Below, one piece after another: positions 3,940-64,000 of a stretch of DNA of 64,000 nucleotides. The translations under genes were made by a program, and so were the position numbers. Location of the stretch: IMG/VR virus record IMGVR_UViG_3300018050_001813, positions 1 through 64,000 of that record; one strand, written 5' to 3'. Source of the DNA: an uncultured virus (IMG/VR IMGVR_UViG_3300018050_001813). Its lineage: Duplodnaviria > Heunggongvirae > Uroviricota > Caudoviricetes. Numbering within the stretch: position 1 is the first letter of the stretch; every line of letters starts with the position of its first letter. The notes below the pieces were generated by a model. It was not told the DNA's origin, made no database searches, and saw nothing but the letters and a program-made list of their open reading frames with translations.

Positions 3940-3945
3940 TATACT

Positions 3946-4224
3946 ATGGCTGGACCAAAAGGTGTTGGTTTAACTAAATGGTTTAATCAGAAATGGGTTA
4001 ACATTGGTGCTCCAAAAAAGAATGGCAAGTGGCAGCCTTGTGGAACGTCTGGTAAAGGTGGCGGTTATGCAAAATGCCTTCCTGTCGCCAAAGCCAATTC
4101 ACTATCGGCTTCTCAGAGGAGAAGTGCGGTTCAACGAAAAAGGTCTCAAGGTACTCCTTCGAAAGGTGTTAAAGGACAAGCTCCAAAAAATGTTGCTACC
4201 TTTAAAAAGAAAAAGAAAAAATAA
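3946..4224 (+). CDS. Basic phage protein
   Basis: GLTKWFNQKWVNIG...PCG...YAKCLP; poly-K end. Confidence 0.7.
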   Translation: MAGPKGVGLTKWFNQKWVNIGAPKKNGKWQPCGTSGKGGGYAKCLPVAKANSLSASQRRSAVQRKRSQGTPSKGVKGQAPKNVATFKKKKKK

Positions 4225-7044: not shown

Positions 7045-7700
7045 TGAATAAAGTTTCTTTGATAATAATAACTGACGGCAGACAAGCATGTATTTCTGAA
7101 ACAATACCGTCCATGCGTAAAAATTTAAACTATAATTTTTATGAGAAAATAATAATTAATGATTCAGCGGATCCCAGATATCATCAATATCTAATGTCTA
7201 ACTATCCGGATTTTCGTATAGTTTCACATGAAACTAGAAGAGGTTTAGCTGGAGCAGTACAGTCGGCATGGGCGTCTGTCTCTCGTAATTCAGACTATGT
7301 CTTTCATTTAGAAGATGACTTTTTATTTAATCAACCAGTTAGCATTGAAGATTTTATATCACTTCTGGAAGCTAATCCTCATCTTGTTCAAATGGCTTTA
7401 GTCCGCGCACCAGTTAATCCACCAGAGGAAGAGGTAGGCGGATTTGTTTTTCAACACCTTGAGGACTATCATCAGAAAGATGATTACTTTGAACACGCTA
7501 GATTATTTACTTTGAATCCATGTTTATATCCTATGTCTACAATCAAAATGGGTTGGCCAGACCATGGTGGTGAATCTGAATTTACTTCAAAGGTTCATTC
7601 ATTAAATAATAGTTATAGATTTGGTTTTTATGGAAATATATATGATAAACCTTATGTAACACATATAGGCGGAAGAAGAAGTGAAGGATGGTTCCTATAA
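7041..7700 (+). CDS. GT2-like glycosyltransferase
   Basis: IIINDS, GLAGAV, YVFHLEDDF, THIG. Confidence 0.8.
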   Translation: MMNKVSLIIITDGRQACISETIPSMRKNLNYNFYEKIIINDSADPRYHQYLMSNYPDFRIVSHETRRGLAGAVQSAWASVSRNSDYVFHLEDDFLFNQPVSIEDFISLLEANPHLVQMALVRAPVNPPEEEVGGFVFQHLEDYHQKDDYFEHARLFTLNPCLYPMSTIKMGWPDHGGESEFTSKVHSLNNSYRFGFYGNIYDKPYVTHIGGRRSEGWFL

Positions 7701-8423
7701 ATGAAAAAAGAAATTACAGTTACAAAAAATAATTTTATATTCAATGTAATAGACGACGATTTATTCCATAGACCACCAGGTTTTGACTATTGGGAAAAAT
7801 TCTATCCAGATTCAGAGCCTTCTGTATTCAGAGCATATGACAAATATTTGAATAAACAAAAAGACTTCTTAGACATAGGTGCGTGGATTGGTCCAAACAC
7901 TCTATATGCAGCGGAGCTTTCCAGAAAAGTAATAGCTGTTGAACCAGATCCAGTTGCTTTTAGTTTCTTAAAGAAAAACGTAGAAGCTAATCAATTTAAA
8001 AATGTTACTCTTTTAGAAAAAGCGTTTTCTTCAAGCAAGCAAGTAGCAATAGATCCTAGTGTAGAACTGGGTGACTCAATGACGAGAGTATTGGATTCTG
8101 TTGATCCAGGTAGGGAAATAGTAGATGGGGTTGATATGGAAGAGCTTCTTTCCTTAGGCGATTACTCGTTAATCAAGATAGATATTGAAGGTTATGAATC
8201 AATAGCAATACCTTTTTTTGAAGAATCTTTAATGAAAGCAAAAATACCAATGGTACTGTCTTTACATACTTCTTTTAATCCGAATAGAGAAGAAGGTCAT
8301 CGTAGTTTGGTCGCATCTTTATCTAAAATATATACCCACGCTTTTGATGATTATAATAATTTTATAGAAATTAAAGACCTACCTGAAGGTTTCGGTTGTT
8401 TTTTACTTACTAATGAGGAGTAG
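7701..8423 (+). CDS. FkbM-family SAM methyltransferase
   Basis: FLDIGAWIG, AVEPDP, LIKIDIEGYE. Confidence 0.88.
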   Translation: MKKEITVTKNNFIFNVIDDDLFHRPPGFDYWEKFYPDSEPSVFRAYDKYLNKQKDFLDIGAWIGPNTLYAAELSRKVIAVEPDPVAFSFLKKNVEANQFKNVTLLEKAFSSSKQVAIDPSVELGDSMTRVLDSVDPGREIVDGVDMEELLSLGDYSLIKIDIEGYESIAIPFFEESLMKAKIPMVLSLHTSFNPNREEGHRSLVASLSKIYTHAFDDYNNFIEIKDLPEGFGCFLLTNEE

Positions 8424-17111: not shown

Positions 17112-20100
17112 ATGGCTAATACTATTTTAGTTAAGAATTCTGGTACAATTACGTCCGTACCCAGTTCTATGACTCATGGAGAACTAGCATTAAATTACGC
17201 AGATGGTAAATTATTTTATAAAAACACATCTAATGTAATTGTTGGCGCTAAATTAATTACTGGAATCTCTGGCACTACAGATCAAATTACAGTAACTGAA
17301 ACATCTGGCTCTTTTGCCATTAGCCTTCCTTCGACGGTTAAACTAACTACTCTATTTATTGATAATATAGAAGTAGATACAACTGGTGCAACAAGTGGTC
17401 AATCATTGGTCTATGATGGATCAAAGTTTGCTCCGTCAAGCATAACTGGCCCTCAGGGTGCACAAGGAAGTCAAGGACCTCAAGGAGCGACTGGTAGTCA
17501 AGGGGCAACTGGTCCCCAAGGCGCCCAAGGCGCCCAAGGTGCTACTGGACCAAGCGCAAATATTTCAGCAACAAATACAGTCGTTGCTGGAAAGTTGTCT
17601 GGTGACCAGTCAATTGCAAGCAACACCAATGATGTTCTCATTTCTTTTGTTGATGACTTTGACCCTAACAACTGGTGGGGTGCAACTACTAAACAATTCA
17701 CGCCAACAATTGCGGGATATTACAATGTTTCACTTCATGCATGGTGGACCGCTGCTGGAGTAACAACAAATCAATATAATATTCAGATTAGAAAAAATGG
17801 TAATACTTCTGCAATTTTTCAAAATCAAACAGTAACAGGTGCAGGTCTTTCACAGGGTGGAAGTAGGGTTATTTACCTAAATGGAACTACTGATTATTTA
17901 GATTTTACCGCATATAATGGAGACTCTTCTTCTAGAAGCCTTCAGTGGGGCGGAGCAGGTCAAGGAACATGGTTCTCTGCTGCTTTAATGACTACAGGCG
18001 TTGGTGCAACTGGTTCTCAGGGTCCACAGGGGCCTCAAGGAGACGTTGGCACACAGGGAGCACAGGGAGCACAAGGTGCCACTGGAGCCCAGGGTTCTAT
18101 CGGACCTCAAGGTAATACTGGTCCTCAAGGGGACATCGGACCTCAAGGTTCAACCGGACCTCAAGGGTCCGTTGGTCCACAAGGGGCTACTGGAGCCCAA
18201 GGTGCCACAGGCACCCAAGGCCCCCAAGGAGCTGTAGGGGCACAAGGAGATATTGGCCCCCAAGGGTCTACGGGCCCACAAGGTGCACAAGGCGCAACTG
18301 GATCACAGGGTCCTCAGGGCGCTACCGGCGCCCAAGGGGCAACAGGGCCCCAGGGCGCAACAGGGCCCCAAGGTAGCCAAGGTCCAGTCGGTGGAGATGG
18401 TCCACAGGGTGACGTTGGCCCTCAAGGCGCTACTGGCCCTCAGGGAGCAACAGGGGCTCAGGGTCCACAAGGGGCTACCGGAGCACAAGGTACAACAGGA
18501 GCACAAGGTGCTACAGGGGCCCAAGGAGCTCAAGGCCCTCAGGGAGATATAGGTCCTCAAGGTGCTACTGGTACCCAGGGAGCTACTGGTGCCCAAGGCG
18601 CCACAGGAGCGCAAGGTGACACCGGACCACAGGGTTCGACTGGGCCACAAGGAGATGTGGGCCCCCAAGGTGCAGTTGGCTCACAGGGAGCTCAAGGTGC
18701 AACGGGTCCCCAGGGTGCCACTGGTCCACAAGGCTCGACTGGGCCCCAAGGTGCCACTGGAGCACAAGGAGATACTGGACCCCAAGGTGCAACTGGTTCT
18801 CAAGGTGCAACAGGTCCTCAAGGACCGCAAGGAGCTACTGGCTCTCAAGGCACACAAGGAGCCCAGGGTTCACAAGGGCCACAAGGCCCAGTCGGAAACC
18901 TTAACTCACACGAATCAGTAAAAACCGCTACAAATGCAGCCCTTCCCAACTCTCCTACATACACTGTTGGTACTGCTGATGACAATAATGGAACTGGCGA
19001 TGGCGCGTATCTTCAAGCATCAACATTTGGTGCTCTTGTTGTTGACTCGCGTACTGTTGTTGCCAACGACAGAGTTCTCGTTAAAAATCAAATTAACCAA
19101 ATCCATAACGGTATCTATGTTGTAACAACAGTTGGTGACGGCTCTACATATTGGCGACTAACTCGTACCTCCGACTTTGACAATACCGATGGTACAGAAG
19201 TTCAAAACGGTGACTATGTTTTTGTTTCGCTAGGAACAGCAAATACAGGTACATCTTGGATGATGAACTCACTCGGTACGAATCCAGGCAATTCAATAAT
19301 TATCGGAACAGACGGAATGAACTGGGTTAATGTTGGTGGTGCTGGTCCACAAGGTGCTCAAGGACCGCAAGGTGCTGGTGGAACAATTGCGTACTGGGGT
19401 TCTTTTTGGTCAAATCAAGATCAAACCGCAGTAGCTGCAAATACAGCTTATGCAATAACTTATGATAATTATGATTCTAATAATTTTGGAGTAACACTTT
19501 CTAATAACTCAAGAATTAATTTCGGTTATGCTGGTGTATATTCTTTGACTTTCTCAGTCCAATGGGCAAACAGTAGTAATCAGATTCATGATGCAAATAT
19601 CTGGTTTAAGAAGAATGGTTCTAATATTCCTGACTCAGATAGCCGATGGAGTGTTGTTGAAAGCCATGGTGGAATAGATGGTAGGGCCATAGGTACAGTT
19701 AACTTTGTCTTAAGCCTCAATGCTAATGACTATATTGAGCTGTTTTGGCAAACAACAAATACTAGTATATCACTTGATTATTTTCCAGCAGTTTCTCCAG
19801 CACCAGCAATTCCTTCTATTATATTTACCGCTGTTCAGGTTACCTATACACAACTTGGGCCTCAAGGGCCCCAAGGTGCAACAGGTTCTCAGGGGGCAAC
19901 TGGACCCCAGGGCGCTACAGGTACTCAAGGTGCTACTGGAGCTCAGGGAGCCACAGGTGCCCAAGGAGATACAGGACCGCAAGGTTCAACAGGCGCTCAA
20001 GGTCCAATTGGACCTCAGGGTGACACTGGACCTCAGGGCCCTCAGGGATCTGTTGGCCCTCAAGGAGCCACTGGTCCTCAAGGAGCCACAGGTGCCCAAG

Positions 20101-22130
20101 GTGCAACTGGCCCACAAGGAGATGTCGGGCCCCAAGGTGCTACAGGTGCCCAGGGTGCAACCGGACCACAGGGGGCACAGGGAGCCACAGGTCCTCAGGG
20201 CGCAACAGGCGCCCAAGGTGCTACTGGCGCTCAAGGAGATGTTGGTCCACAGGGTTCCGTGGGTCCACAGGGACCACAAGGTTCTGTTGGACCTCAAGGT
20301 GAAACGGGGTCACAAGGATCTGCTGGACCCCAAGGTGCAACTGGCCCTCAAGGTTCCACCGGCCCACAGGGCGATATGGGTCCCCAAGGAAGTACTGGAC
20401 CACAGGGGCCTCAAGGCGCAACTGGACCACAAGGTCCAGAAGGACCAACTGGTTCAATCGACGATTTGTCTGATGTTGCAATCACAATGCCTTCAGGAGC
20501 ACAATTCCTTAAATATAATTCTGGAACATGGGTTAACAGTACGATTACTTTAGGTACTGATACTGATGGAAATTATGTATCAGGCGTAACTGCTGGTACA
20601 GGAATTTCAGTTAGCCATACACCATCTGAGGGATCTTCCGCATCAATATCATTATCTAATACTAGTATTTCGCTAAATGGAACATCTATTTCTTTAACTA
20701 GTGCGGGATCACAAACAGTAACAGCCGATGCGGGCACCTTAACTGGGACAACATTAAACTCAACTGTTGTTTCTTCTAGTTTAACTTCTGTTGGAACAGT
20801 TACCAGTGGAACATGGAATGGTGCAACAATAGCAGTTGCTAACGGAGGAACTGGCGCAACCGATACCGCTACAGCAAGAAGTAATCTAGGTCTTGCTATT
20901 GGAACAAATGTTCAGGCCTATGATGTAGAGCTCGCTGCGCTTGCTGGCTTAACTTCAGCGGCAGATAAATTACCATATTTTACTGGGTCTGGCACCGCCT
21001 CACTTGCTGATTTCACAAGTGCTGCTAGATCTGTGCTGGACGATGCATCTACATCTGATATGCGTACCACCTTAGGTCTTGCTATTGGCGTCGATGTACA
21101 AGCTTATAATTCCACATTAGCTGCAGTTGCTGGTGGAACCTATACTGGCGCAACATCTATTACGACACTAGGTACTGTTGTTACAGGAACTTGGAATGGC
21201 GGAACTGTAGCTATTGGTCATGGTGGAACTGGAGCTACAACAGCAGGTGATGCGCGTACTAATCTAGGTGTTGGTACAGCAGATAGTCCTTCATTCGCTG
21301 GAATAACCGCAGATGCAGTACAAGTTGGCATTACATCGGCAAACACTATTGACACAACGTCTGGTGGTCTTACGATTGATTCTGCTAGCGGCACAACAAC
21401 TGTTAGTGATAATTTAATTGTTTCAGGCGACTTAACTGTTAATGGCACTACCATTACTGTTAACTCAACTATAGTCACAGTAGATGATCCAATTATTACT
21501 CTTGGTGGCGACACAGCTCCTAGCTCAGATGATAATAAAGATAGAGGAGTTGAATTCCGTTGGCATAATGGTTCAGCGGCAAAAGTTGGATTCTTTGGCT
21601 ATGACGATTCAACTGGTAAGTTTACATTTATACCAGATGCCACGAACTCTTCTGAAGTATTCTCGGGCACCTTAGGTACGATAGATGTTGGAGCTATCCA
21701 TATCAATGGATCGCAGATAGCTGCAACAAGCTTAAGCAACGGTACTACGGGAACTGGTTCTATTGTTTTAGCAACTCAACCTACTCTTGCCACTGGAATT
21801 AATGTAACTGACGTTGCAACAACAATCAGCGCAAACAGTACGGCAACAACTATAGATACAACTGCAGTCTCGGGCACTGAGTGTGTCGAGTACACCTTAA
21901 GACTTACCCAGGGAAGTAAGCGTAGAGTTTCAAAGGTTCTTGTACACCTAAATAGCGCAGGTACTGATGTAGACCATGTTGAGTATGCGGTAATTGAGAC
22001 AGGCGGAGCAATAAGTGGCGTGAGCGTAACATCTACTGTCTCTGGTGGAGATATATTATTAAGAGCACAAGCCAGTGATGCATCATCGACAAATGTGACA
22101 GCTAAAGTTATTAAGGTAGTGATGCAGTAA
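17112..22130 (+). CDS. Collagen-like tail fibre/virion fibre with C1q-like domains
   Basis: Long G-X-Y runs (GPQ/GAT/GAQ); [11 protein letters not shown] and [15 protein letters not shown]1q-like segments; [15 protein letters not shown]-terminus; GGTGAT...ARSNLGL fibre repeats. Confidence 0.85.
18003..18896 (+). repeat. Collagen G-X-Y coding repeat, block 1
   Basis: Uninterrupted 9-bp periodic GGN-NNN-CAR/ACN; ends approximate. Confidence 0.9.
19858..20455 (+). repeat. Collagen G-X-Y coding repeat, block 2
   Basis: Same periodicity; ends approximate. Confidence 0.9.
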
Positions 22131-26259: not shown

Positions 26260-26916
26260 ATGGAGATAGAACAAATGAACATTCATGATTATGGGAATGG
26301 TATCATTTTTTATGACAATGGACTTAGTGATCAATTGTGCGATACTATTTGGTCATTTTACTACGATAATTTAGAATTTACTAAGCCGGGTGTCACAATC
26401 TCCGGAAAGCCACTAACTCCTTCTGGTGAGCGTTGGAAAAATACAATAGATCAAGAAGGTTACTGGAATGACCCGGGAATTGACTTGTCTATTAAGGCCG
26501 AACGCTCTAGAATTGATGAGTTAATATATCAAGAACTTCGTCCTGTGGTGTCAGCATATCTAGATTCTTTTAAATATCTTGGAGAAGCGCCTGGTGTTAA
26601 TGATACAGGCTATCTATGGCAGATGTATGTAAAAGGCGATGGTTATTATCGCGAACATGTTGACGGACAGCAGTGGGTTTATCGAGTGCACCGTAGAATT
26701 TGTGGCATCGTTTGTTATGTTAATACAGTTGAAGATGGCGGAGAAACATACTTTGCCTATCAAGATTTAAAGATTAAACCAAAAAAAGGTGGAGTCGTTA
26801 TTTTTCCGGCGCACTGGATGTATCCACATGAGTCACTTGTTCCTGAATCATCAGACAAATTAATTCTAAGTTCTTTCCTAGAATGTGAACCAGAGTTTCA
26901 TGCACACCCGAATTGA
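26260..26916 (+). CDS. 2OG-Fe(II) oxygenase, prolyl-4-hydroxylase-like
   Basis: YYREHVD...YVNTVEDGGET.F...KPKKG..VIFP...YPHES...K. Confidence 0.88.
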   Translation: MEIEQMNIHDYGNGIIFYDNGLSDQLCDTIWSFYYDNLEFTKPGVTISGKPLTPSGERWKNTIDQEGYWNDPGIDLSIKAERSRIDELIYQELRPVVSAYLDSFKYLGEAPGVNDTGYLWQMYVKGDGYYREHVDGQQWVYRVHRRICGIVCYVNTVEDGGETYFAYQDLKIKPKKGGVVIFPAHWMYPHESLVPESSDKLILSSFLECEPEFHAHPN

Positions 26917-48862: not shown

Positions 48863-49629
48863 GTGTTAACCACGAGATCAAATGGAACATTATAAATTTC
48901 TGAAAGATCTTTGAGTAAGCCTTCATTTGCCATAGCGGAAAATAGAAAAGCATAACTTTCAGAAACATAATCATTGTCAACCGGATCATTGAGCTGATCA
49001 AAGTATTTATCGCCATCTTGAATATGGCTATCGTCAAGCAAATACTCCTTTACGGGGAGATTAAGCTGCTTACCTAAATGCTTGTAGATAGCTCTATCAA
49101 GGTTTAGGCAAAACATAGAAATGTTTACACTTGACAAATAAAAAGTTTGAACATGTTCTAAAGAATATTCTATCTTAAGAAGATCAAATAATTCTTTAAC
49201 AACATTCTCATCTGCGTCAGCATTAATAAAGACTTTGTTCATCATAGAAAGATAGCGAAGTCTTTGAATAATTAAGGCTTCCTTATGATTAAACATTTGT
49301 ATCTTAGCGAAATCACCATTAGTAAGAGTATTAAGAGTGATAGAAATAGCTTTGATATAGGAAGGAGTTTGTACCTTTTGATAATAAGCAGATGTTGCTG
49401 CATGAAAACTAGCGGCAAGCTTTACTTTTTCTTCATCAATAGGAGAGTTCTCATCAGAAGAAATTTCATCAACAAGCTGCTTAGCAGAAGAAATGAAGTC
49501 TTCTATAGTTTTATTTTTATTGGAGGAAGATGGCGAATAAGCTTCAGATTGAAGAGCAGCAGAAGAATCTTCTGCATCTACCTCTGGATCATATTCGAAG
49601 AGATCATCATCATTCTGGGAGTAGGTCAT
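48859..49629 (-). CDS. Acidic hypothetical protein
   Basis: Likely start MTYSQNDDD at 49629. Confidence 0.6.
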   Translation of the reverse strand: MTYSQNDDDLFEYDPEVDAEDSSAALQSEAYSPSSSNKNKTIEDFISSAKQLVDEISSDENSPIDEEKVKLAASFHAATSAYYQKVQTPSYIKAISITLNTLTNGDFAKIQMFNHKEALIIQRLRYLSMMNKVFINADADENVVKELFDLLKIEYSLEHVQTFYLSSVNISMFCLNLDRAIYKHLGKQLNLPVKEYLLDDSHIQDGDKYFDQLNDPVDNDYVSESYAFLFSAMANEGLLKDLSEIYNVPFDLVVNT

Positions 49630-50074
49630 TTTTGGTGGTAGTCTTTCTGCGGTATTTGCGTTTAGGACTGATAATTCTAAGATTTTCAATCTTGGCCATT
49701 TGAACAAACTGTTTAGCTTTTTCAATGGTTAAGTTGAGAAGGTCGTTATTAAGATATTGCCTAATAAAATATAAGCGTTGACGATATATGGTTCCGCCCC
49801 AAACACCATCATAATTATATTTAATAGCTTCATGTAAACACTCTACTTGTACAGGACAAGCAGAACACATGCTTATAGCTTTGGCTGCAGAGGATGCAGA
49901 TTTATTGTCGCTGTTAATAGAAAAGAAATGATCTGTCGATAAAGATCCGTTTCTACAAAGAGCTTTTTCTCTCCATAGAGAACCTAAATCGTCAAAGCAC
50001 TCATAAAGATTAGCAACGTTTTTGGGAGAACCTCTACGAGAAGTAATGGGAGAAGTGGGATTAGAATCCATCAA
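49610..50074 (-). CDS. whiB: WhiB-family Fe-S transcription factor
   Basis: WREKALC...FF...AISMCSACPVQVECL..A.....GVWGG...RQR. Confidence 0.9.
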   Translation of the reverse strand: MMDSNPTSPITSRRGSPKNVANLYECFDDLGSLWREKALCRNGSLSTDHFFSINSDNKSASSAAKAISMCSACPVQVECLHEAIKYNYDGVWGGTIYRQRLYFIRQYLNNDLLNLTIEKAKQFVQMAKIENLRIISPKRKYRRKTTTKNDLLPE

Positions 50075-55714: not shown

Positions 55715-56134
55715 TTATAGAGCACAAGAATCACATAGAGTTTTGCGCCAAAAAGAATTAGTAAGTTTTCCTAATTGCCCACAGTTTTCACAGATAGAAA
55801 AAGATTGGGATTCGGCATGGTTGATAAGCACTTCAATAATATGACGTGCGGTATCTTGACCTTGATGAATGGATAGATCTACATAGTATCTTAATCCACC
55901 GAATTTTTCTTTGACTTGAGCAATCTTATAATGAGGATCAATATAAGATATGTCTGTGTTAAGCTGGGCAATAAGATGGATCCAACCTGGACCTACATCT
56001 AGATGTGTAGGAAAGTTAGGATTAAATCTTGATAGTAAATCAAGAATAGAAGGAGTGTTTAAAAGAACTTGTTGACGCAAGGTAGTAGAGTTAATTTTAG
56101 ATAAATAAGACTGCCAATATTCTTCGTTAGTCAC
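55715..56134 (-). CDS. Conserved phage hypothetical protein
   Basis: GPGW..LI...QVKEKFGGLRYY...S..ICE.CG..G...W.KTLC pattern. Confidence 0.75.
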   Translation of the reverse strand: MTNEEYWQSYLSKINSTTLRQQVLLNTPSILDLLSRFNPNFPTHLDVGPGWIHLIAQLNTDISYIDPHYKIAQVKEKFGGLRYYVDLSIHQGQDTARHIIEVLINHAESQSFSICENCGQLGKLTNSFWRKTLCDSCAL

Positions 56135-56606
56135 TATTGGTGTCCTTCCATGTAATCATGTCAGTATAAAATGATGAGCCTATTTCATCGTTTGTAGTAA
56201 AAACAACTCTTGATATTCCGGCATCGACAATCTCTTGCATACACCATGAACATGGTCTAGCTAAAGCAGGAATATCTTTTGAACGTAGACGAGCAACATA
56301 GAGAGTTGCTCCTCGTACGTTACGGGTGTTTTTAAGAACGCGAACTTCGGCATGTGTGCTCACTCTATTAGGAGGTGTACTAGGAGATATTTTTGGCATG
56401 TTTACATCAGCGCCAAGAACTCTACCTGATTTGACAACCATTGCTGCAATACGAAAACGATATTGAGAAGTAGTAGCGATCTTAGCTGTAGCTGATAAAA
56501 AAGAAACATCATTATTGCTAAGAGTATCTTGAACAAAAATATAATCAGTATAAGGATTATTGACTTGACGAGAATAGTAATTAGTAAACCTTGACATGTG
56601 TTCCAT
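56127..56606 (-). CDS. Cytidine/dCMP deaminase-family protein
   Basis: HAE and RPCSWC zinc motifs; GATLYVAR; GISRVVF. Confidence 0.85.
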   Translation of the reverse strand: MEHMSRFTNYYSRQVNNPYTDYIFVQDTLSNNDVSFLSATAKIATTSQYRFRIAAMVVKSGRVLGADVNMPKISPSTPPNRVSTHAEVRVLKNTRNVRGATLYVARLRSKDIPALARPCSWCMQEIVDAGISRVVFTTNDEIGSSFYTDMITWKDTNSD

Positions 56607-56615
56607 TATATCAGA

Positions 56616-58289
56616 TTACCACTTAGATCGTGAATATTTAATTTTGTTATCCAACCAAGCTGGTCTTGGATTGGCTTCATAATATTTAGAAATGATTTGA
56701 CTAGCAGTTCCTTTAGTCATATCAGAAGTAACGGGAACACCAATTCTTTTAAGAAGTTTTTTCTGTGCGTCAGTTGGACCATCAGATCGCCAAGCTGCAT
56801 CAGAATCAATAAGCTTTGTATCAAATCTTTTCATGATCCATTTGTCGCTACGAACAAAAGCATCTCGCATATCTTCAGGATAACCTAAGAATGTAGTTTT
56901 TAATCCTTCAGATGTACGATGCCTATGTTCAACGGTCCATCTTCCTAAAGTATCAACATATATTCTAAGAGAATTATTATTATCTATACCAAGATGATAA
57001 TCATTTTCTGCTACTTCAGCCCAAACAAAACGAGAATATTGTTGAACAAATTCGTTTGGTGGGGGCGGCATAAAAAGATTAATACGCTTATAAGCTAGTT
57101 CTATATCATCAGGTGCTAATACCCTAACGGCTTCACCAGGACAATAATCTTCGAGCTCTTTATATTTATTCGCTACGTCTGTTAATGATTGGCCTTGTAA
57201 ATCGAATTCTGGGGGTAGGCCGAGAAGAGATGGAAGGCCAATAGGTTTGCGACCCTTTGTGGTGTCGGCAAAATCTAAAATGGTGCAATGAGGTTTTCCT
57301 TCATATAGTCTTGTGCCTCTACCAACAATTTGCGTATATAAGAGAGTAGATCTAGTAGGTCTAGCAAGTAAAATTGCTTCTACGGATGGTTCGTCGAATC
57401 CTTCCGTAAGAACTCCAACATTGATGAGGACTCGCGTTTCACCGCTAGCAAAACGCGCCAGAATATCTCTACGATCATCTGTACTAGAAACACCTAATAT
57501 TACCTCATTTGTTATTTGCGCTTGCCCAAAGGATAGGGCCAGGTTTTGGGCATGTCTGACTCCGGCAGCGAAAACAAGGGCTTTCGCATTAGGGACCAGA
57601 TCATTATAAGCAGCAACAATGGTAGCATTGCGCTGAGGATTATCAATAACATCTTCAAGTTGTGATTGGTTGTAGTCTCCATCATTTGTTTCTACTCCTG
57701 AAATATCTGTGTCTGTTTTAATCCTATATCCTACCAGAGGAGATAGATATCCGTCTTGTATAAGATCTTGAATTGTTTTATAATATACTATTTCTTGAAA
57801 AACATCAGTAAGACGAACACTGTCACTACGTTGTGGAGTAGCTGTTACTCCAAGTAGAAACGACGGATTGAAGTAATCCAGGATACGACGATACGTAGGA
57901 GCCGCTGCATGATGTGCCTCATCTATAACTATGCTATTAAAGTAGTCAGGTGGATACTTTTGTATTCGAGTTGATTGAGCTCTACCAAGAGTTGGAACAC
58001 TAGCTACAACAACATCTACATGTCCAGCATGGTTTTCGCCTTGTTCAATTTCTACAGTTAAATCAGGATTAGACCAAGATATTTTTTCTTTTGCCTGATG
58101 AAGAAGTTCTTCTCTGTGAGCTAGAACAAGCATAGGTAGGCTTTTTTGTTTGAACTGTGGAAGGTGGGAAAAGATAACAGTTTTCCCTGCACCAGTAGGG
58201 AGGACAACAAGTTGACGGACTATACCCTTTTCAGAAAAAGATACAACAGAATCTAAAGCTTCTTGTTGGTATGGTCTGAGTTGCAACAT
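56616..58289 (-). CDS. SF2 DEAD/DEAH-box helicase (ResIII/Irc3-like)
   Basis: LRPYQ, LPTGAGKT, IDEAHH, TATP, LTEGFD, QIVGRGTR. Confidence 0.93.
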   Translation of the reverse strand: MLQLRPYQQEALDSVVSFSEKGIVRQLVVLPTGAGKTVIFSHLPQFKQKSLPMLVLAHREELLHQAKEKISWSNPDLTVEIEQGENHAGHVDVVVASVPTLGRAQSTRIQKYPPDYFNSIVIDEAHHAAAPTYRRILDYFNPSFLLGVTATPQRSDSVRLTDVFQEIVYYKTIQDLIQDGYLSPLVGYRIKTDTDISGVETNDGDYNQSQLEDVIDNPQRNATIVAAYNDLVPNAKALVFAAGVRHAQNLALSFGQAQITNEVILGVSSTDDRRDILARFASGETRVLINVGVLTEGFDEPSVEAILLARPTRSTLLYTQIVGRGTRLYEGKPHCTILDFADTTKGRKPIGLPSLLGLPPEFDLQGQSLTDVANKYKELEDYCPGEAVRVLAPDDIELAYKRINLFMPPPPNEFVQQYSRFVWAEVAENDYHLGIDNNNSLRIYVDTLGRWTVEHRHRTSEGLKTTFLGYPEDMRDAFVRSDKWIMKRFDTKLIDSDAAWRSDGPTDAQKKLLKRIGVPVTSDMTKGTASQIISKYYEANPRPAWLDNKIKYSRSKW

Positions 58290-58493
58290 GATGTCCCCCC
58301 TAACGGTTTAGTTGAATTCAAGTTCTGTTAAATAATATTCAGAGTCCATAAGGCGTCTGATGTTTTGCTCAAACTCCTCATCTGACATAACATATGATTT
58401 TACCATATGGGGAGTTTGATATTTGTTTGCGCTACAGTTGGTAACGGCAATGTATTTAATTTCTTTGTCTTGCATTATTATTCATTTTCTATG

Positions 58494-59090
58494 TTACTGA
58501 TGAATTGCACTATAATATGCAATTTTAAGGGAATCAAATATCTGAAGCGAAGCTCCAGAATAACTAAGATACGAAAGACATTCGTGAACAGTATATGGCG
58601 AGGAATCTAAGTGAGTGAACATAAAAAAAAGATTAATCATATCTTTTGTAGGACCTTCAAAGTTTGTGTCAAGAAGGTTCTGAGTAGTAAAATGATCAGA
58701 GTGCCAAGTGATAGTTTTATCTTGATTTTTTGTATATGGAAGCTGAATTATATATCCTCGGTATTCTGAAATAAGAAAAAGTTGTAGACAATCAATTTCT
58801 TGATTATCAGAATTTTTAATAATAGAATCCAAGGAAATTAAAGCACAGCTAGAATCTAAACAAGGATAAAGATAAAGTGCTTCAGCGAGCTTAGATAAAG
58901 TATTGGAAAAAGACTGCTGAGGAGCAGGAGTGACAACTACTTGACGAGTTTTTTCATTCTTAAAAAATGTTATCATAGGATGGTATTTAGCATCACGAGA
59001 TGCTGTATCCATCAAAACATTTTGAAGAATATTAATTTCTTCATCAATAATTGCACATTCTTCTTTAATTTTTTCTAGATCGTATGTCAT
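58494..59090 (-). CDS. Hypothetical protein
   Basis: 198-aa ORF with RBS. Confidence 0.6.
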   Translation of the reverse strand: MTYDLEKIKEECAIIDEEINILQNVLMDTASRDAKYHPMITFFKNEKTRQVVVTPAPQQSFSNTLSKLAEALYLYPCLDSSCALISLDSIIKNSDNQEIDCLQLFLISEYRGYIIQLPYTKNQDKTITWHSDHFTTQNLLDTNFEGPTKDMINLFFMFTHLDSSPYTVHECLSYLSYSGASLQIFDSLKIAYYSAIHQ

Positions 59091-59097
59091 ATCTGTC

Positions 59098-59424
59098 CTA
59101 TAAAAGAACCATTATAGCACTAAAAAGTGCGTAGGTTCCATAAAGATAAAGGAATAAAGCGGAGAAGAAAACAAAAGAACTGGAAGCTGTCAACATAATG
59201 ATAGAGAACAATACTGTTTCTACAGCCCAATAGCTGATTAGTGAAGCAGCTTTTGTTTCGTCTTTACGAAAAAAGGCAATAGACTTTCCAAGAGCTTTAC
59301 CAAGCTTATGAAAGATGTTTTTATTTTTCTTAGCAGGGACAGCTAAAGCATAGGTATACGTATAAGCGTTTCCGGTAGCAATAGTTGGATTATGCATTTG
59401 AACAAGAGCATTAATAGTATTCAT
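59098..59424 (-). CDS. Membrane protein
   Basis: C-terminal hydrophobic helices. Confidence 0.6.
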   Translation of the reverse strand: MNTINALVQMHNPTIATGNAYTYTYALAVPAKKNKNIFHKLGKALGKSIAFFRKDETKAASLISYWAVETVLFSIIMLTASSSFVFFSALFLYLYGTYALFSAIMVLL

Positions 59425-59583
59425 AAAACTTCCTTTCGTTTTTGAATAATTATTTCATTTTGAGGAAGCCATCCAAACCAATTTGTCTTGAGACTTTTTA
59501 GAAGAATAGATCCCTGCCGATTTGAATTCTCAATGAATTCAAAATCAGGACCAGCTTCATTGATACGGTTTCGTGTACGACCA

Positions 59584-60048
59584 CTAGCTGTCTGTGGATT
59601 TTTCTTGATTGTTAAAATTATCATTAATAATATTCCTAAAAGTTTTATCTCTTTCGCGATTCTGTTTAATGACATCAACGATCTGCTGAGCGAGCTCTTC
59701 AAGATCGTCTTTAAGATCTTCAGGAACTTCATGATCTTGTTCATAGATGTCAATATGCTCCTGAAGTTGTTCAGGAGTCATTTGAAGAGTTTCGGCATAT
59801 TCATTAATATAATTTCCGATAAGAGTATAATGATAAATATCTTCATCAGACAAACCAGTTTCTCTTTGAAGATGTTCATGAGCAGCATGAACTGGTCTTA
59901 CTTTAAGAAAAGCTTCAGTAGTACTATCAGTAATTTGATTCATATAATAGATGAACAAATCCTGTTTACGACGGAAAAGCCACAGGCACTTCAATGCATG
60001 AAATTTGTCTGGATGAAAATTATCAGGAGTGTAATCATTAATATTCAT
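59584..60048 (-). CDS. Acidic hypothetical protein
   Basis: 154-aa ORF coupled to the upstream gene. Confidence 0.6.
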   Translation of the reverse strand: MNINDYTPDNFHPDKFHALKCLWLFRRKQDLFIYYMNQITDSTTEAFLKVRPVHAAHEHLQRETGLSDEDIYHYTLIGNYINEYAETLQMTPEQLQEHIDIYEQDHEVPEDLKDDLEELAQQIVDVIKQNRERDKTFRNIINDNFNNQEKSTDS

Positions 60049-60049
60049 T

Positions 60050-60658
60050 TTAATATCCTGCGACTTTATAATCGAGTTGCTCTTCTGTCAGATTTCCGTT
60101 GGCACGATTTTCCATAAATTTGTCGTAGTCATCACGAGTATTTTTGGAGATCTGCCAAACATTAATGCCCCAACGATCTGGATGAGCATTCTCTACCCAG
60201 TGAGGATTTTTAGTATTAAACATAAAAACCTCTCCGCCTGTTAAATCATAACGCCCTACGGGCACTGATTCATGAAGGCCGGGTTGCCAAAAATATTGGT
60301 CATTAGAACGCTCATAGTACCAAGTAACTTTACCAAGATTGATAGACATACCTCGGTAATCAGCGTAACGCGCATCACGATGACGCCTAATATTGCCACC
60401 CTTAGTGACAAGAACTGCTTCAGGAGTAAATCCTGGAGGAGAAATAAGACGAATATAATTCATAATTCTTTCGTCTTCAAATCCTACGTGCCAAGTAGCA
60501 GAAGATGTAAGGGGTGGTGCAGTTTGGATCCAAAGCTGACGACGACCCTTAGCAGCTCCTTGGCTATTAATGATCATGTGAGGTAGGATAGTTTCGTTAA
60601 GATAATCAACAATAGATTTTTGATTATCTGCAGAAATTGTTTTAATATACTCTTCCAT
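60050..60658 (-). CDS. 2OG-Fe(II) oxygenase-like (AlkB-type fold) protein
   Basis: IRRHRD...INLG...NPHWV...DRWGINVW (HxD...H...R); likely start MEEYIK at 60658 with GGAGA RBS. Confidence 0.6.
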   Translation of the reverse strand: MEEYIKTISADNQKSIVDYLNETILPHMIINSQGAAKGRRQLWIQTAPPLTSSATWHVGFEDERIMNYIRLISPPGFTPEAVLVTKGGNIRRHRDARYADYRGMSINLGKVTWYYERSNDQYFWQPGLHESVPVGRYDLTGGEVFMFNTKNPHWVENAHPDRWGINVWQISKNTRDDYDKFMENRANGNLTEEQLDYKVAGY

Positions 60659-60737
60659 AATATATATTTCTCCCAAATAAAATAAAAGGTTCAGATTTTT
60701 GTATGAACTATTATTTTTTAAAAACACTTAATCTTCA

Positions 60738-61503
60738 TGTTACGTAATCGTGTTGTATGGTTCATTTCCAGGCGTTGTTACAATTGCACGCGCTTGATTC
60801 ATTCTGGTATCTTAATATAAGTCAACGGTATTGATTCATTCGACCCAAATGATATAAATCGCTCGCGATAATTCATTCAAACTGGGTGTTACAATTCTGA
60901 AGATTTGATTCATTCTACTGGGATGTTACAATTCGTACTGCGTGATTCATTCTTTCTGCTTGTTACTAATTATTCATGATGATTCATTCGGGTACGCTGT
61001 TACTAATTTTTCCATTTGATTCATTCGTTCAATATAATACAAGTCAAAAAGGCTGATTCATTCTAGAGCTATAATACAATTCGGATAGAGTGATTCATTC
61101 TGAACAATTGATACAGTTCATGGAAGGTGATTCATTCATGAAGTGTGATATTTATTTTTGGGTTTGATTCATTCATCAACAATGATACTAATCTTAGAAA
61201 ATAATTCATTTATTGTGAGTGTTACAAATCATTGAGTATAATTCATTCGTCCGATTTGTTATTAATCATATTTGATGATTCATTCTTAGATGATGTTACT
61301 AATCTATCCTTTTGATTCATTCGCGGTCGATGTTACTAATTCCATATCGTGATTCATTCAATTCGGCTGTTACTAATTTTTCCATTTGATTCATTCTGGC
61401 AACTTGTTACTAATTACGCTTTTTGATTCATTCGCTTTCGTTGTTACTAATCGGTCAGAATGATTCATTCATTCGCGCTGTTACTAATCGGGCCCATTGA
61501 TTT
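60738..61503 (-). ncRNA. TIGR-like dual-repeat, dual-spacer array (20 full 37-bp units)
   Basis: + strand TGATTCATTC-N8-TGTTACTAAT-N9, first repeat starting every 37 bp from 60758 to 61461 with a partial copy at 61498; directly downstream of a Nop-domain gene; strand inferred from that gene. Confidence 0.88.
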
Positions 61504-61530
61504 AAATTTTATTATAAAAAATTTGTATAC
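61504..61530 (-). promoter_or_regulatory. AT-rich leader with TATAAT, putative array promoter
   Basis: Minus strand tatacaaattttttataataaaattt just upstream of the first repeat. Confidence 0.4.
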
Positions 61531-61576
61531 CGAGGTACACCCATATTTCTGGATATACCCCGGCAACAAACACTAG

Positions 61577-62503
61577 TCATGCAAATGGATTGTTAGGAAT
61601 AGCAATTTCATGTACGTGTCCACCATGTTCAATGATGTACGGGCGAGGCGCAGGTGTGCCATGATGAGCCTGATATGCCACTGCGTGATAGTGGCTCAGG
61701 AAGATCTTGGCAGCAAAGCGTCGTGCTTGTGCATCAATCTGTGCAGGAGGAAGCTTGCCTGATTCGAGACAGGTACGAGTAGGATTATTGCCCCACTTCT
61801 TAGTGGTAAGAATCTGCTTAGCAAATTCTGCATAATCTCCAGCTTCGTTCTTTTCGATGCGGCGAGCCTTATCCTGCTTGTAGAGATGACCGTAGAAGCA
61901 CTGATCTTTATTGGAGAACTTCATGAAGCTCTGACCAATCTTCCAAGTGAGAGTCTTCAACTGTGCGTTGAAGGGGCGCTTCTGGCCTTTTTCCCACTTG
62001 ATAGTAGGATCAATACCAGCGTAACGCCAGATTGCTCCAGCAGTCGGTGCCTTCTCGATGTCAATATGAGCAACGAGTCCAGCAGTAATAACTGGTCCAA
62101 TGCCATACTGGCTTTTAGCCCAGTTGCCGACTACGAACTGATCACCAAAGTGATCAAGCGGAGAGACAAGTGACTTCTCTAGCATCTCAATAACAGTTGC
62201 ATAATAGCTGAGCAGTTCATGAGGACTACCAGCCTTAGTCAAGTCACGGACTTGGTTGTTATAACCAAGGCGTGCTTTCTGCAAGTCATAATAAAGCGAG
62301 ACAAGTTCGCGTGCGGAGCGTCGATCAAGATCAACTTCCATCTTGCGAACATCCTTATTGAGGACTCGCTGATTGAATTGAAAGAAATCGAATGCTTGAC
62401 GAACAATGTCGTCAGGATGAGTTTGATCTTCAAGAATATCATCAAGAAGATGATCATCTTCATGGATTTCATTGTCATTAATGTGGAATTCTGCGGAAGT
62501 CAT
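61577..62503 (-). CDS. TasA-like Nop-domain (IS110/Transposase_20-related) RNA-binding protein lacking a nuclease domain
   Basis: Coiled coil (YYDLQKARLGYNNQ); GIGPVITAGLVAHID...AIWRYAGIDP; no N-terminal DEDD RuvC; adjacent dual-repeat array. Confidence 0.82.
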   Translation of the reverse strand: MTSAEFHINDNEIHEDDHLLDDILEDQTHPDDIVRQAFDFFQFNQRVLNKDVRKMEVDLDRRSARELVSLYYDLQKARLGYNNQVRDLTKAGSPHELLSYYATVIEMLEKSLVSPLDHFGDQFVVGNWAKSQYGIGPVITAGLVAHIDIEKAPTAGAIWRYAGIDPTIKWEKGQKRPFNAQLKTLTWKIGQSFMKFSNKDQCFYGHLYKQDKARRIEKNEAGDYAEFAKQILTTKKWGNNPTRTCLESGKLPPAQIDAQARRFAAKIFLSHYHAVAYQAHHGTPAPRPYIIEHGGHVHEIAIPNNPFA

Positions 62504-62565
62504 AAATACTCCTTAAGTCTATTAACAAATTTTTTTATTATATAGCGATTCTTTTATGTATGTAG

Positions 62566-62612
62566 AAAAAAGTTGTGGAGGGACCCGATAGGGCAGGTCC
62601 CTCCACAACTTT
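62566..62612 (-). terminator. Rho-independent terminator separating the upstream gene from tasA-like
   Basis: aaagttgtggagggacc / ggtccctccacaacttt 17-bp stem; T-run on the minus strand; TATAAT and AAGGAG follow before the tasA-like start. Confidence 0.8.
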
Positions 62613-62627
62613 GTATGAACATGCTGT

Positions 62628-64000
62628 TTAGTACAGCGACTTCTCCAGCTTTCTGACAGGAGGCTTAGGGCTGACGAAGACGATAGGAGACTGCTCCGCG
62701 TGAGCTCTCTGAAACTCAAGCGGATCAGTATATTCCACTTCGATGCCTTGGGCATCCTTCCAGAGCCAACTCTTCTTGATATCTGTAACAATCTTCATGC
62801 GATCTTTGACAAGTTCGCGATGGGCAGAACGAGCAATTCCGTAATACTGAAGAGCTTCTTCAAGATACGGAAAGACGAATCTGTTCATCACAACCTGGTC
62901 AGTGACCTTACCAGTAGAAGTAGGGTTCTTGATTGATTCAGAATAGAGTGCAATCACAAAGTCATATGAATCGAGAATTCGCTCATAAGAATTGATCTTG
63001 TCAACAATATCTGAATACAAATGTTCCCACGAAGAACGCTGGATTGCTCCAGAGCTCTTCGTTACTTCTGTGGAATTAGTATTGTACAGGTTCATTCGGA
63101 ATTGGCGAAGAACTGGATAAGCATGATGGCGAAGACGATTGCCAAGTTGGTGAATGATCTCATCAGGACGGGCGTTCTTCTGAGACCAATCACGAACGCT
63201 GTTTACGTAACGCTTGAAATAAGTGTCACATAGTGCGTTCAGCTGCGAGAGCTTACCGTGATAAAGTTCCACGGTTTCGCCTCGCTTAAGGAATCGCTTC
63301 ATTCCACGCTTGTACCAAAAGTCCTCATCAATCGGTTTGCCGGATTTGATGACTTCACGCATCATCTGTTCGGCTTCACGATCAATAGCAAGGACATCAG
63401 CGGCGTTGTCGGGATTAATGCACTTATCGATAGCAGTTTCCAAAGTGCACAATTGGACAGGTCGATGCTTAGCAATGACCATAGAATGGGCCATTGCGGC
63501 GTTGACGAATCCACCGACGTTACCACCAGCCATAGCAATTTTGATGTCACGAATGACATCATCTTGAGTGTAAGGGCCAGTTCGCTTTACCTTAGGCAAT
63601 GCTTCGGAAGGAAGTCCAGTATACTGGATCTTATTCGCAAAGATTGAGCTAGACAAGCGAGGAGGCCATCCACGACCGTTAACTTCGGGGAACATGACGG
63701 GAGTACCATCTGCCTTATGCCACGTGGGGGCCCAAGAGCCCTCCACATAGCGGAAGATGGTGTATTCGCCGTAGCCATTTGGTGAACGAGTGGCTACAAC
63801 GACTTTCTCTCCGTCATAATCTCCGCCTTGCATGGTGCGGTAGAAGAGCTTGAAGAAGTCATCTTCATCCATACCACCATGGCTCTCATACATTTCGAGC
63901 CAATCGCAATCGTTAACGACGTGACAACCAAGAGCATTGCAACGTACGATTGTATCCTCTTCAACGATCATATCATATCCTGCCATGCGAGCAAGGCTTT
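62628..64000 (-). CDS. Large protein, 5'-truncated by the window; possible two-barrel (RdRP/YonO-like) polymerase C-terminal part
   Basis: Frame stays open to the window end; GGMDEDD, GGDYDGE, RSP, NVGGFVN...AID motifs; functional call is tentative. Confidence 0.35.
   Translation of the reverse strand, partial: SLARMAGYDMIVEEDTIVRCNALGCHVVNDCDWLEMYESHGGMDEDDFFKLFYRTMQGGDYDGEKVVVATRSPNGYGEYTIFRYVEGSWAPTWHKADGTPVMFPEVNGRGWPPRLSSSIFANKIQYTGLPSEALPKVKRTGPYTQDDVIRDIKIAMAGGNVGGFVNAAMAHSMVIAKHRPVQLCTLETAIDKCINPDNAADVLAIDREAEQMMREVIKSGKPIDEDFWYKRGMKRFLKRGETVELYHGKLSQLNALCDTYFKRYVNSVRDWSQKNARPDEIIHQLGNRLRHHAYPVLRQFRMNLYNTNSTEVTKSSGAIQRSSWEHLYSDIVDKINSYERILDSYDFVIALYSESIKNPTSTGKVTDQVVMNRFVFPYLEEALQYYGIARSAHRELVKDRMKIVTDIKKSWLWKDAQGIEVEYTDPLEFQRAHAEQSPIVFVSPKPPVRKLEKSLY

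Follow-up and report, generated by a model that had tools for sequence, protein, structure and literature searches.

A probable dual-repeat TIGR-TasA system with a 20-unit array in the genome of an uncultured phage

The genome of an uncultured phage known from the 77.8-kb IMG/VR record IMGVR_UViG_3300018050_001813, whose first 64,000 nucleotides constitute the window analysed here, carries on its minus strand a gene for a nuclease-free Tas protein, tasA, and downstream of it a 20-unit array of two alternating short repeats. Very probably, this locus is an intact dual-repeat TIGR-TasA system that operates along the lines proposed below; it is a good example of an already described RNA-guided DNA-binding system and not something new. 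From the size of the record and its completeness estimate, the whole phage genome should measure about 200 kb. The description of TIGR-Tas systems dates from 2025; Faure et al. and Xu et al., in their discussions, treat both the natural targets and the manner in which guides are gained as open. Taken alone, the locus adds little: it is in all likelihood an intact TasA system with clear boundaries and 20 guides. Together with the comparable arrays of its close relatives, it might provide a natural setting in which to test array turnover.

The tasA gene occupies positions 61577–62503 of the minus strand as an open reading frame of 308 amino acids, which is present, along with its motifs, as the earlier note had claimed. 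The protein can be divided into an acidic, low-confidence tail (residues 1–46), coiled-coil helices, a Nop domain and a C-terminal loop bearing Y289 and H296. Its membership in the Nop/Tas family, likewise claimed at the outset, is borne out by several lines of comparison. The NCBIfam model NF052498 (“TIGR-Tas system RNA-guided endonuclease”) matches residues 65–276 with 174.6 bits (cut-off 100; E 2.7e-51). Among PDB sequences, phmmer retrieves 9mty_A (E 4.9e-13) and TasH (E 3.9e-12), and a profile of 58 sequences recovers the same two at 8.5e-33 and 9.6e-21, with the recombinase IS621 at merely 3.9e-5. An AF2 model made with the 58-sequence alignment (pLDDT 88.6, pTM 0.82, as against a pLDDT of 34.5 for the single-sequence fold) retrieves in Foldseek searches of the PDB exclusively TasH and TasR chains at ranks 1–10 (E 2.5e-7 to 2.6e-6, probability 1.00, TM-scores of 0.51–0.58 on the query), followed by IS621 and ISCro4. 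The detectable homology begins at residue 65 in the NCBIfam match and at about residues 46–48 in the others, and the model has a pLDDT below 50 for residues 1–14 and 10-residue block means of at most 58 through residue 30. Neither RuvC nor HNH was found by Pfam, whose sole match was a weak one to Transposase_20, in agreement with the original description of the protein as free of such a nuclease domain. The label “transposase” that PHROGs assigns to the protein (phrog_4285, E 4e-42) was rejected, as was membership in the IS110 transposase family, on account of the low scores of transpos_IS110 of NCBIfam (15.3 bits against a cut-off of 140) and Transposase_20 of Pfam (18.5 bits against 21.3, E 0.0027) and of the lack of a match to DEDD_Tnp_IS110.

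Among solved structures, the best sequence match is TaTasR (PDB 9MTY, the TasR structure of Faure et al., PMC12045711), the similarity extending to the C-terminal EHGGHV; however, the roughly 120 residues of its N-terminal RuvC nuclease have no counterpart in the phage protein, and its array is built of 36-nt units with 9-nt spacers. SpTasH of Salicola phage CGphi29 (PDB 9W03, 9W04 and 21KL; NAR 2026, PMC13421893) matches in sequence and fold across the coiled coil and Nop domain, at about 21–22% identity in the structural alignment, and likewise has 8-nt spacers and a Tyr289/His296 processing pair in the C-terminal loop. SpTasH differs in having an N-terminal HNH nuclease with which it cuts DNA, whereas here there is only the acidic, disordered N-terminus of about 46 residues. 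Y289 and H296 of the phage TasA align with Y289 and H296 of SpTasH, the reported precursor-processing residues, and the two positions are occupied by Tyr in 46 and by His in 55 of the 58 aligned homologues. The RNA-guided IS110 recombinases (e.g., IS621 and ISCro4; PDB profile matches of 3.9e-5 and 1.9e-4) have an RNA-binding Nop-like C-terminal domain in common with TasA, but they also possess a DEDD catalytic domain that is absent here and use one bridge RNA in place of an array of many guides.

The array (60758–61497, minus strand) lies 70 nt downstream of tasA and comprises 20 units of 37 nt in a strict 37-bp period, with a cut-down repeat at both ends; it was delimited by its layout, by pattern search and by comparison of the units, and the period of 37 was also called by Tandem Repeats Finder. 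On the minus strand, each unit reads spacer A (8 nt plus R), loop repeat AUUAGUAACA, spacer B (8 nt) and edge repeat GAAUGAAUCA. When the sequence is laid out in lines of 37 bp starting at 60721, repeats of the type TGATTCATTC fall at 60758 + 37n through 61461, confirming the register first noticed. A search of the window for this repeat with at most one mismatch yields 24 matches, against 9.66 ± 3.41 in shuffled sequences (n = 100, none of which reached 24); 18 of the 24 lie in the exact register between 60795 and 61461, 16 of them being exact, and the units at 60758 and 61202 carry two mismatches each. Counted as edge repeats, 16 of 20 units are exact. The second repeat, TGTTACTAAT, shows no mismatch in the six gene-proximal units and 1 to 5 mismatches farther out. 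No open reading frame of at least 40 amino acids is listed between 60728 and 61576.

The earlier note had read the variable segments as 8 and 9 nt in length. The first of these values holds; the second does not, because the supposed ninth base is a purine in 63 of 65 unique units drawn from five arrays, and the free segments are therefore 8 + 8 nt. Both 8-nt segments have a purine directly after them, the 37th base of the unit is an additional base within the loop repeat, and this anatomy is uniform over the 65 unique units. The array opens with an edge repeat truncated at its 5′ end, AAATCA (61498–61503, minus strand), recognized from the layout and the alignment of leaders, which fits the array starts of Faure et al. 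and is kept in four of five aligned leaders, being altered in the relative L003. At the far end lies a degenerate 21st unit (60721–60757, minus strand), in which a loop repeat with a 1-nt insertion is followed by a 3′-truncated, degenerate edge (AAGUG); L003 has the same array tail. The distal units with degenerate loop repeats may not give rise to working guides. Both consensus repeats take the form AW...WCA, and the layout fits the published box C/box D scheme. Read by eye, the position that follows a spacer's AW is able to pair with the initial W of WCA (A–U in the edge, U–A in the loop), and in one relative (L010) the second edge pair is C–G instead of U–A, although the repeats hardly vary in the clade and offer little independent covariation.

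In the alternation of its repeats and the pair of short spacers in each unit, the array conforms to the dual-repeat TIGR arrays of Faure et al. (2025, Science, PMC12045711), as had been proposed. Judged by the published description, the parallels with the FpTasA system of Flavonifractor plautii from that work include a solo Nop-domain protein without a nuclease, a downstream array in which two short repeats alternate and every unit holds a pair of short spacers, a 5′-truncated edge repeat at the array start, and a phage setting. There are also differences: dual-repeat guides have been described as uniformly 36 nt, as against units of 37 nt here, and their spacers as 9 + 9 nt, as against free segments of 8 + 8 nt with a purine after each. 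The repeat ends of TasR arrays have been described as UG...CCA, whereas by the published layout those found here are AW...WCA. Such a slightly unusual unit (37 nt, 8 + 8-nt spacers and AW/WCA ends) could help define the variation that the protein–RNA fit allows. CRISPR-Cas was considered and rejected as an identification of the array, which has two different repeats of 10–11 nt and 8-nt spacers, unlike CRISPR with its one repeat of about 25–36 nt, its spacers of comparable length and its cas genes; searches of the neighbouring proteins against PHROGs, Pfam and NCBIfam returned no match to Cas families.

The signals around the gene are those that the earlier note had listed, namely an upstream terminator, a −10 box and a ribosome-binding site, all of which were recovered. 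The intrinsic terminator of the upstream gene (62628–63986) lies at 62566–62612 on the minus strand, by coordinates taken from the fold string, and has a U run after its 19-bp stem (−41.4 kcal/mol, z −5.82). It is followed on the same strand by a promoter-like site for tasA, TCTACA-18-TATAAT (62537–62566), which is purely a pattern match (10/12 in the consensus scan), and by an AAGGAG ribosome-binding site read from the sequence (62509–62514), with the ATG 5 nt on. Just past the tasA stop, the minus strand can form a leader hairpin of about 22 bp running directly into U6 (61515–61571; −30.7 kcal/mol, z −5.84), which is probably the terminator of tasA or an attenuator ahead of the array. It is kept in three relatives (L002, L003 and L004), and in our own reading of the alignment the differences are G–U-compatible on the gene's strand alone. 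Overlapping its U run is a TATAAT box (61511–61516, minus strand) that stands 7 nt ahead of the first cut-down edge repeat and is kept in four of five aligned leaders; to judge by its sequence, it may be the array's own −10 element; a good −35 element to accompany it was not seen. Past the array, a weak hairpin of 5 bp and the U-rich stretch behind it (60689–60708, minus strand) make at best a weak terminator, the fold of 60655–60760 being no better than shuffles (z 0.50). A search of Rfam gave one chance-level match inside tasA and otherwise nothing. It counts against the full reading of the locus that the sole promoter signal for the array is a −10 box and that a strong terminator-like hairpin stands between tasA and the array, while the one past the array is weak; the 37-nt unit length and the failure to find a target for any guide count against it as well.

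On the mechanism proposed here, tasA would be transcribed from its own promoter, and the array, lying on the same strand, would be transcribed either by read-through of the hairpin past tasA or from the overlapping TATAAT. TasA would bind the precursor via the repeat ends around the spacers, i.e., WCA before and AW after, and its Tyr289 and His296 would cut inside the edge repeats, yielding about 20 different guides of 37 nt; TasA has been reported to bind RNAs of unit length. A TasA dimer with one guide would then open a DNA site of 16–17 bp with one 8-nt spacer on each strand, such that one target strand would read spacer A and then the reverse complement of spacer B. The processing, the dimer formation, the two-strand geometry and the repressive outcome are all put forward by analogy with studied members of the family: lacking a nuclease, the complex would block transcription or replication instead of cutting, and MbTasA has been reported to repress transcription in a guide-dependent manner and to bind target DNA in gel-shift assays.

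An association of homologues with such arrays, the absence of which the earlier note had named as a refutation, is found at 36 of 50 related loci. At 28 of these, at least two in-phase units with the same edge repeat lie downstream of the gene and co-oriented with it, and at eight further loci there are arrays with units of 36 or 38 nt built from other repeats. This bears on the suggestion that the repeats act as DNA, for instance as iterons or a centromere-like protein-bound site, with the Nop protein adjacent by coincidence. Origins of replication and partition sites, too, contain short direct repeats at fixed spacing; yet the segments lying between the repeats are hypervariable from one near-identical phage to the next, the array in relatives without exception shares the strand of the gene and lies directly downstream, the repeat ends fit the box C/box D layout of published tigRNAs, and binding of such RNAs has been demonstrated for the family to which the protein belongs. 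We therefore hold a DNA-site role to be extremely unlikely.

The relatives also speak to the possibility that the locus is a decaying remnant in which the gene or the array has recently ceased to work. In a related genome that is about 98% identical over long aligned blocks (G001), an 81-bp deletion removes the last 25 codons of tasA, including the Tyr/His loop, and the system can therefore be dispensed with or decay. Two more distant loci (L008 and L009, ~45% identity) have lost the Tyr/His residues and have no array, and in the phage itself distal loop repeats are degenerate, with 2–5 mismatches. Against this, the tasA frame is whole, with the family-conserved residues and the Tyr/His pair kept, 16 of the 20 edge repeats show no mismatch, nor do the six loop repeats closest to the leader, and an independent metagenome contig (L166) carries an identical gene together with an identical 20-unit array. 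Recent loss of function is thus very improbable, and an intact TIGR-TasA system remains the preferred reading. Among 50,697 deposited phage records, tblastn matched solely Salicola phage CGphi29 (two records of one phage), and megablast of positions 56000–64000 against deposited phages gave no match.

The earlier note had further suggested searching for targets of the spacer pairs; none was found in the phage or in four related genomes, and none that convinces in IMG/VR. The 20 guides of the window matched the 77.8-kb record at a rate equal to that of controls when up to three mismatches were allowed (two real and two control arrangements). Similarly, 65 guides searched against 872 kb (the record and G001–G004, in both arrangements with gaps of 0–2) gave ten one-mismatch and no exact matches, against 11–19 in permuted controls (n = 3); about 60% of the phage's own genome lies outside the record, and this part was reached via G001, which is 92% complete. 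These counts speak against the alternative that the guides steer TasA to promoters or genes of the phage itself and so time their expression. TasA proteins do repress transcription in reporter assays, and regulation of the viral life cycle is among the possible roles in the discussion of Xu et al.; however, the matches to own DNA stay at the control level in both searches, and conserved own genes should mean conserved guides, yet the near-identical G001 has only 9 of the 20. Self-regulation is hence improbable. The sets of guides diverge strongly among near-identical phages, and the phage's own DNA is matched by none; the targets are therefore most likely foreign, be they competing phages, other mobile elements or the host, and not genes of the phage itself, and the guides may serve against competitors or host loci.

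In a self-target search with the published arrangement, 154 guides gave 22 one-mismatch matches and one exact match, as against 11 and 20 one-mismatch and no exact matches in controls. The single exact match joins the first guide of L175 to the codons for the peptide QIDAHT in a glycosyltransferase-like gene of G003; with about 0.2 exact matches expected by chance on our own estimate, it is a lead only. Copying of guides from neighbouring array DNA was not seen (four matches at two mismatches, against 3–7 in controls). The scans of IMG/VR took in guides 1 and 2 of the 20 in the window. Guide 1 had 16 matches in eight flank clusters, against 11 in six for a backwards control, and guide 2 matched 81 stretches, 80 of which were clustered, into 35 clusters. 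The largest cluster of guide 1 (eight matches) represents one conserved gene in GC-rich records, four of the five looked up being classed as provirus. It was considered as a target and judged to be chance multiplied by gene conservation; the other guides gave nothing above control on the five contigs looked up.

The comparison set holds ten distinct arrays with 154 distinct guides. G001 and this phage have nine guides in common, of 18 and 20 parsed, respectively. Units in the first six ranks behind the leader are less often common to several arrays than those farther on: of 60 such units, 15 are common to more than one array, and that few were seen in 109 of 10,000 permutations, with the cut at six chosen after looking; a rank-sum permutation test for polarity of the shared guides was not significant (1998/10,000). 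It is conceivable, at somewhat less than even chances, that TIGR arrays in this clade are renewed at roughly the pace of CRISPR arrays, and by a modular route. If true, such turnover would give a comparative handle on how guides are gained and reshuffled in TIGR arrays, and would argue that they chase changing foreign targets and not the phage's own genes. Half-guides recur in combination with unrelated partner halves, a pattern that would arise if units recombined at the loop repeat or halves were replaced in place.

Judged by its sequence, the locus formed by the array (60758–61497) and the adjoining tasA gene (61577–62503, minus strand) qualifies as a dual-repeat TIGR-TasA system; the observation put forward in the earlier note is confirmed, and its TIGR-TasA-like reading is supported. 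Such an interpretation, which is supported by the evidence below, adds another TIGR-TasA member to a known class: the preprint of Xu et al. (2026) reports 20,096 tas loci and 6,685 arrays, and the window contig may already be among those loci. A full-text search found no literature joining "tigRNA" with "jumbo phage".

The 37-bp periodicity of alternating repeats is plain when the plus strand is broken into 37-bp rows starting at 60721: TGATTCATTC-type repeats fall at 60758 + 37n, the last at 61461, and between them come TGTTACTAAT-type repeats, with short variable segments separating the two kinds. With at most one mismatch allowed, the first repeat has 24 matches in the 64-kb window against 9.66 ± 3.41 in shuffled sequence, with none of 100 shuffles reaching 24; 18 of these matches lie in exact 37-bp register from 60795 to 61461 (16 without mismatch), and the units at 60758 and 61202 carry two mismatches in this repeat. 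The same period is given by Tandem Repeats Finder. The ORF listing has no ORF of at least 40 aa between 60728 and 61576, and the 308-aa ORF at 61577–62503 is present on the minus strand as claimed, just upstream of the array in that reading.

Taken together and read on the gene's (minus) strand, 65 unique units, drawn from the window array and four related ones, have the following layout: positions 1–8 are free (spacer A), position 9 is a purine in 63/65 units, positions 10–19 are the loop repeat AUUAGUAACA, positions 20–27 are free (spacer B), and positions 28–37 are the edge repeat GAAUGAAUCA, with position 28 a purine in 63/65. Given the near-constant purine at position 9, both free segments are 8 nt long, rather than 8 and 9 nt as proposed earlier. 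Among the window's loop repeats, those of the six leader-proximal units are perfect, and those farther along are degenerate. Under the layout described for the array finder of Xu et al., namely box C (3 nt), a 9-nt spacer and box D (2 nt), with a 4-nt gap separating intervals, the edge and loop repeats would both read AW...WCA; the gap is then 4 nt in the edge (UGAA) and 5 nt in the loop (UAGUA), which explains the 37th base of the unit. The gap-side base of box D could pair with the base that opens box C (as A-U in the edge and as U-A in the loop), agreeing with the account of UG...CCA repeats in Faure et al. (Science 2025, PMC12045711), in which G pairs with C. This pairing is our reading of the consensus repeats, and covariation for it is thin because the repeats barely vary within the clade; in the sole comparison from outside it, the edge repeat GAACGUAGUCA of the tasA-related locus L010 has, by eye, C-G instead of U-A as the second pair.

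The tasA product receives only a sub-threshold Transposase_20 match in Pfam (E = 0.0027) and is labeled a transposase in PHROGs (phrog_4285, E = 4e-42). The curated NCBIfam model NF052498, "TIGR-Tas system RNA-guided endonuclease", covers residues 65–276 at 174.6 bits (cut-off 100). An IS110 identity can be rejected, the NCBIfam IS110 model scoring 15.3 bits against a cut-off of 140. Searched against PDB sequences, the single protein recovers 9mty_A (E = 4.9e-13), the TasR complex of Faure et al. (PMC12045711), and TasH (E = 3.9e-12); a 58-homologue profile returns these at 8.5e-33 and 9.6e-21, with IS621 and ISCro4 far weaker (3.9e-5 and 1.9e-4). The predicted model has a pLDDT of 34.5 from the single sequence, and of 88.6 (pTM 0.82) with the alignment; in a Foldseek search of the PDB with the latter, TasH and TasR chains take all of the first ten ranks (E = 2.5e-7 to 2.6e-6), and IS621 and ISCro4 come next. 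Membership of the Nop/Tas family is thus borne out by the NF052498 score, the PDB profile matches and the Foldseek ranks. The absence of a nuclease domain holds as well, since homology starts at residue 65 (NCBIfam) or at residues ~46–48 (other matches), the N-terminus is of low confidence (pLDDT <50 for residues 1–14, block means of at most 58 up to residue 30), and the RuvC domain forming the first ~120 residues of TasR has no counterpart in the window protein. Y289 and H296 are retained in the C-terminal loop, and the profile alignment places them on Y289 and H296 of SpTasH, the two residues to which catalysis of precursor processing is ascribed (NAR 2026, PMC13421893); among the 58 aligned homologues, the Tyr is found in 46 and the His in 55.

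The family comprises 2639 cluster representatives at E ≤ 0.001 (1230 at E ≤ 1e-30), with no informative name among the 120 closest proteins listed, and its sole match in 50,697 deposited phage records is Salicola phage CGphi29, the source of SpTasH, present as two records. Homologues lie next to such arrays at 36 of 50 loci (10 viral and 40 metagenomic, some contigs being in both collections): at 28, two or more in-phase units with the edge repeat of the window array follow the gene on its own strand, and eight (L010, L011, L193, L194, L201, L202, L203 and L204) have periodic arrays of 36 or 38 nt with other repeats. No array was seen at the other 14, seven of which have ~0.7 kb or less of sequence past the gene. 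At four loci of 45–46% identity (L008, L009, L198 and L200), a gene starts right after the stop of the tasA homologue. The ~248-aa homologues of L008 (2995–3741) and L009 (3001–3732), also at 45–46% identity, have no array nearby, nor was one found anywhere in the complete 210-kb genome of L008, in whose translation we read the Tyr/His positions as changed. In two related phages (G003 and G004), a protein C-terminus consists of a long run of 12-bp repeats coding for FPP(Y/F) (L040 11610–11790; L049 17345–17520), and the 36-bp periodicity at these loci is a false signal arising from it.

Arrays differ even between close relatives. The related phage G001 is 87–98.7% identical to the window over long aligned blocks (~98% over most), and the two arrays have nine guides in common, in the same order, of 20 in the window and 18 parsed in G001. 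There, an 81-bp deletion (~12110; 3840–3965 in its tasA locus, L003) takes the last 25 codons of tasA along with the Tyr/His loop and stop codon, and the first array unit is scrambled. In an independent metagenome contig (L166), the gene and all 20 units are identical to those of the window. Ten distinct arrays hold 187 units, of which 154 are distinct; 15/60 in the first six ranks are common to another array versus 58/127 at later ranks. Sharing of at most 15/60 arose in 109 of 10,000 within-array permutations, the six-rank cut having been chosen after looking, and a rank-sum test of sharing against rank was not significant (1998/10000). Eight unit pairs have one identical half and differ at 4/8 or more positions in the other, whereas letter-shuffled units gave 0.52 such pairs on average, and never more than 3, over 200 trials; these pairs are not all independent, and one resembles a 1-nt register shift. 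One of them, units 4 and 14, lies within the window array. A literature search on TasA or "TIGR array" found no TIGR paper using the term "spacer acquisition".

The terminator, -10 box and RBS ascribed to tasA were all found: upstream lies a hairpin of 19 bp that ends in a U run (-41.4 kcal/mol, z -5.82) and terminates the preceding gene, followed on its 3' side by a promoter-like TCTACA-18-TATAAT and then AAGGAG. A ~22-bp hairpin (-30.7 kcal/mol, z -5.84) separates the tasA stop from the array; it leads directly into U6 and is kept in L002, L003 and L004. Its differences, as we read the alignment, yield G-U pairs on the gene's strand only, a pattern that favors an RNA element encoded there. 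The array opens with a cut-down edge repeat, AAATCA, and 7 nt before this repeat a TATAAT box overlaps the U run, with no good -35 element seen for it. The array might be transcribed either through the ~22-bp hairpin or from this TATAAT box. It ends in a degenerate 21st unit and a degenerate half edge, with only a weak hairpin (z 0.50).

Given the 8-nt 3' overhangs and the tolerance of 1–2-bp gaps between half-sites described by Faure et al. (PMC12045711), one target strand should read spacer A and then the reverse complement of spacer B. The spacer-pair search suggested earlier gave no target in this phage or four related genomes, and no convincing one in IMG/VR for guides 1 and 2. The 20 window guides show no excess in their own 77.8-kb record, and 65 guides gave 10 one-mismatch and no exact matches across 872 kb made up of this genome and four related ones (permuted controls, 11–19). 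With all 154 guides, this and the related genomes yielded 22 one-mismatch matches and one exact match, as against 11 and 20 one-mismatch and no exact matches in controls. The exact match, within chance expectation by our estimate, places the first guide of the L175 array on a glycosyltransferase-like gene (L034 ~7536; G003:67536) with a 2-bp gap, over codons for the peptide QIDAHT; the first guide of the L169 array also matches this gene, and a paralogous site at G003:70990 has three mismatches. The arrays themselves are not targeted. In IMG/VR, guide 1 had 16 matches in 8 clusters (backwards control, 11 in 6), the largest cluster falling in a single conserved gene of GC-rich records, most of them classed as provirus, in which no other guide exceeded control; guide 2 returned 81 stretches, 80 of which formed 35 clusters. 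Searches of this kind, we conclude, are unable to place 16-nt guides, a point also made by Xu et al. That the array regulates the phage's own genes is unlikely.

The IMG/VR record of the window is 77,827 bp (CheckV completeness 37%) with a GC content of 38%; related phages span 180–211 kb, two with terminal repeats. Genes in the window include those for tail fibers, an endolysin, a DNA polymerase exonuclease subunit, a helicase, a dCMP deaminase and a WhiB-like regulator (49610–50071, minus strand; phrog_472, E = 5.9e-15). Actinomycetota and the phages that infect them typically encode WhiB proteins, and this gene is a possible lead to the host. Immediately past the array, a 202-aa gene (60050–60658, minus strand) has no Pfam, PHROGs or NCBIfam match; it occupies the same place in L002–L005 (66–99.5% identity) and, at 39% identity, lies slightly downstream of the array-less TasA homologues in L008 and L009. 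By eye its product has an HxD...H-like pattern, and weak protein-atlas leads are to Asp/Arg hydroxylase and 2OG-oxygenase clusters. Glycosyltransferase-like, methyltransferase, 2OG-Fe(II) oxygenase-like and dCMP deaminase genes (7044–8423 and 26260–26916, plus strand; 56127–56606, minus strand) may together point to nucleotide or DNA modification. A 1672-aa tail-fiber protein (17112–22130, plus strand) has many collagen-like repeat matches.
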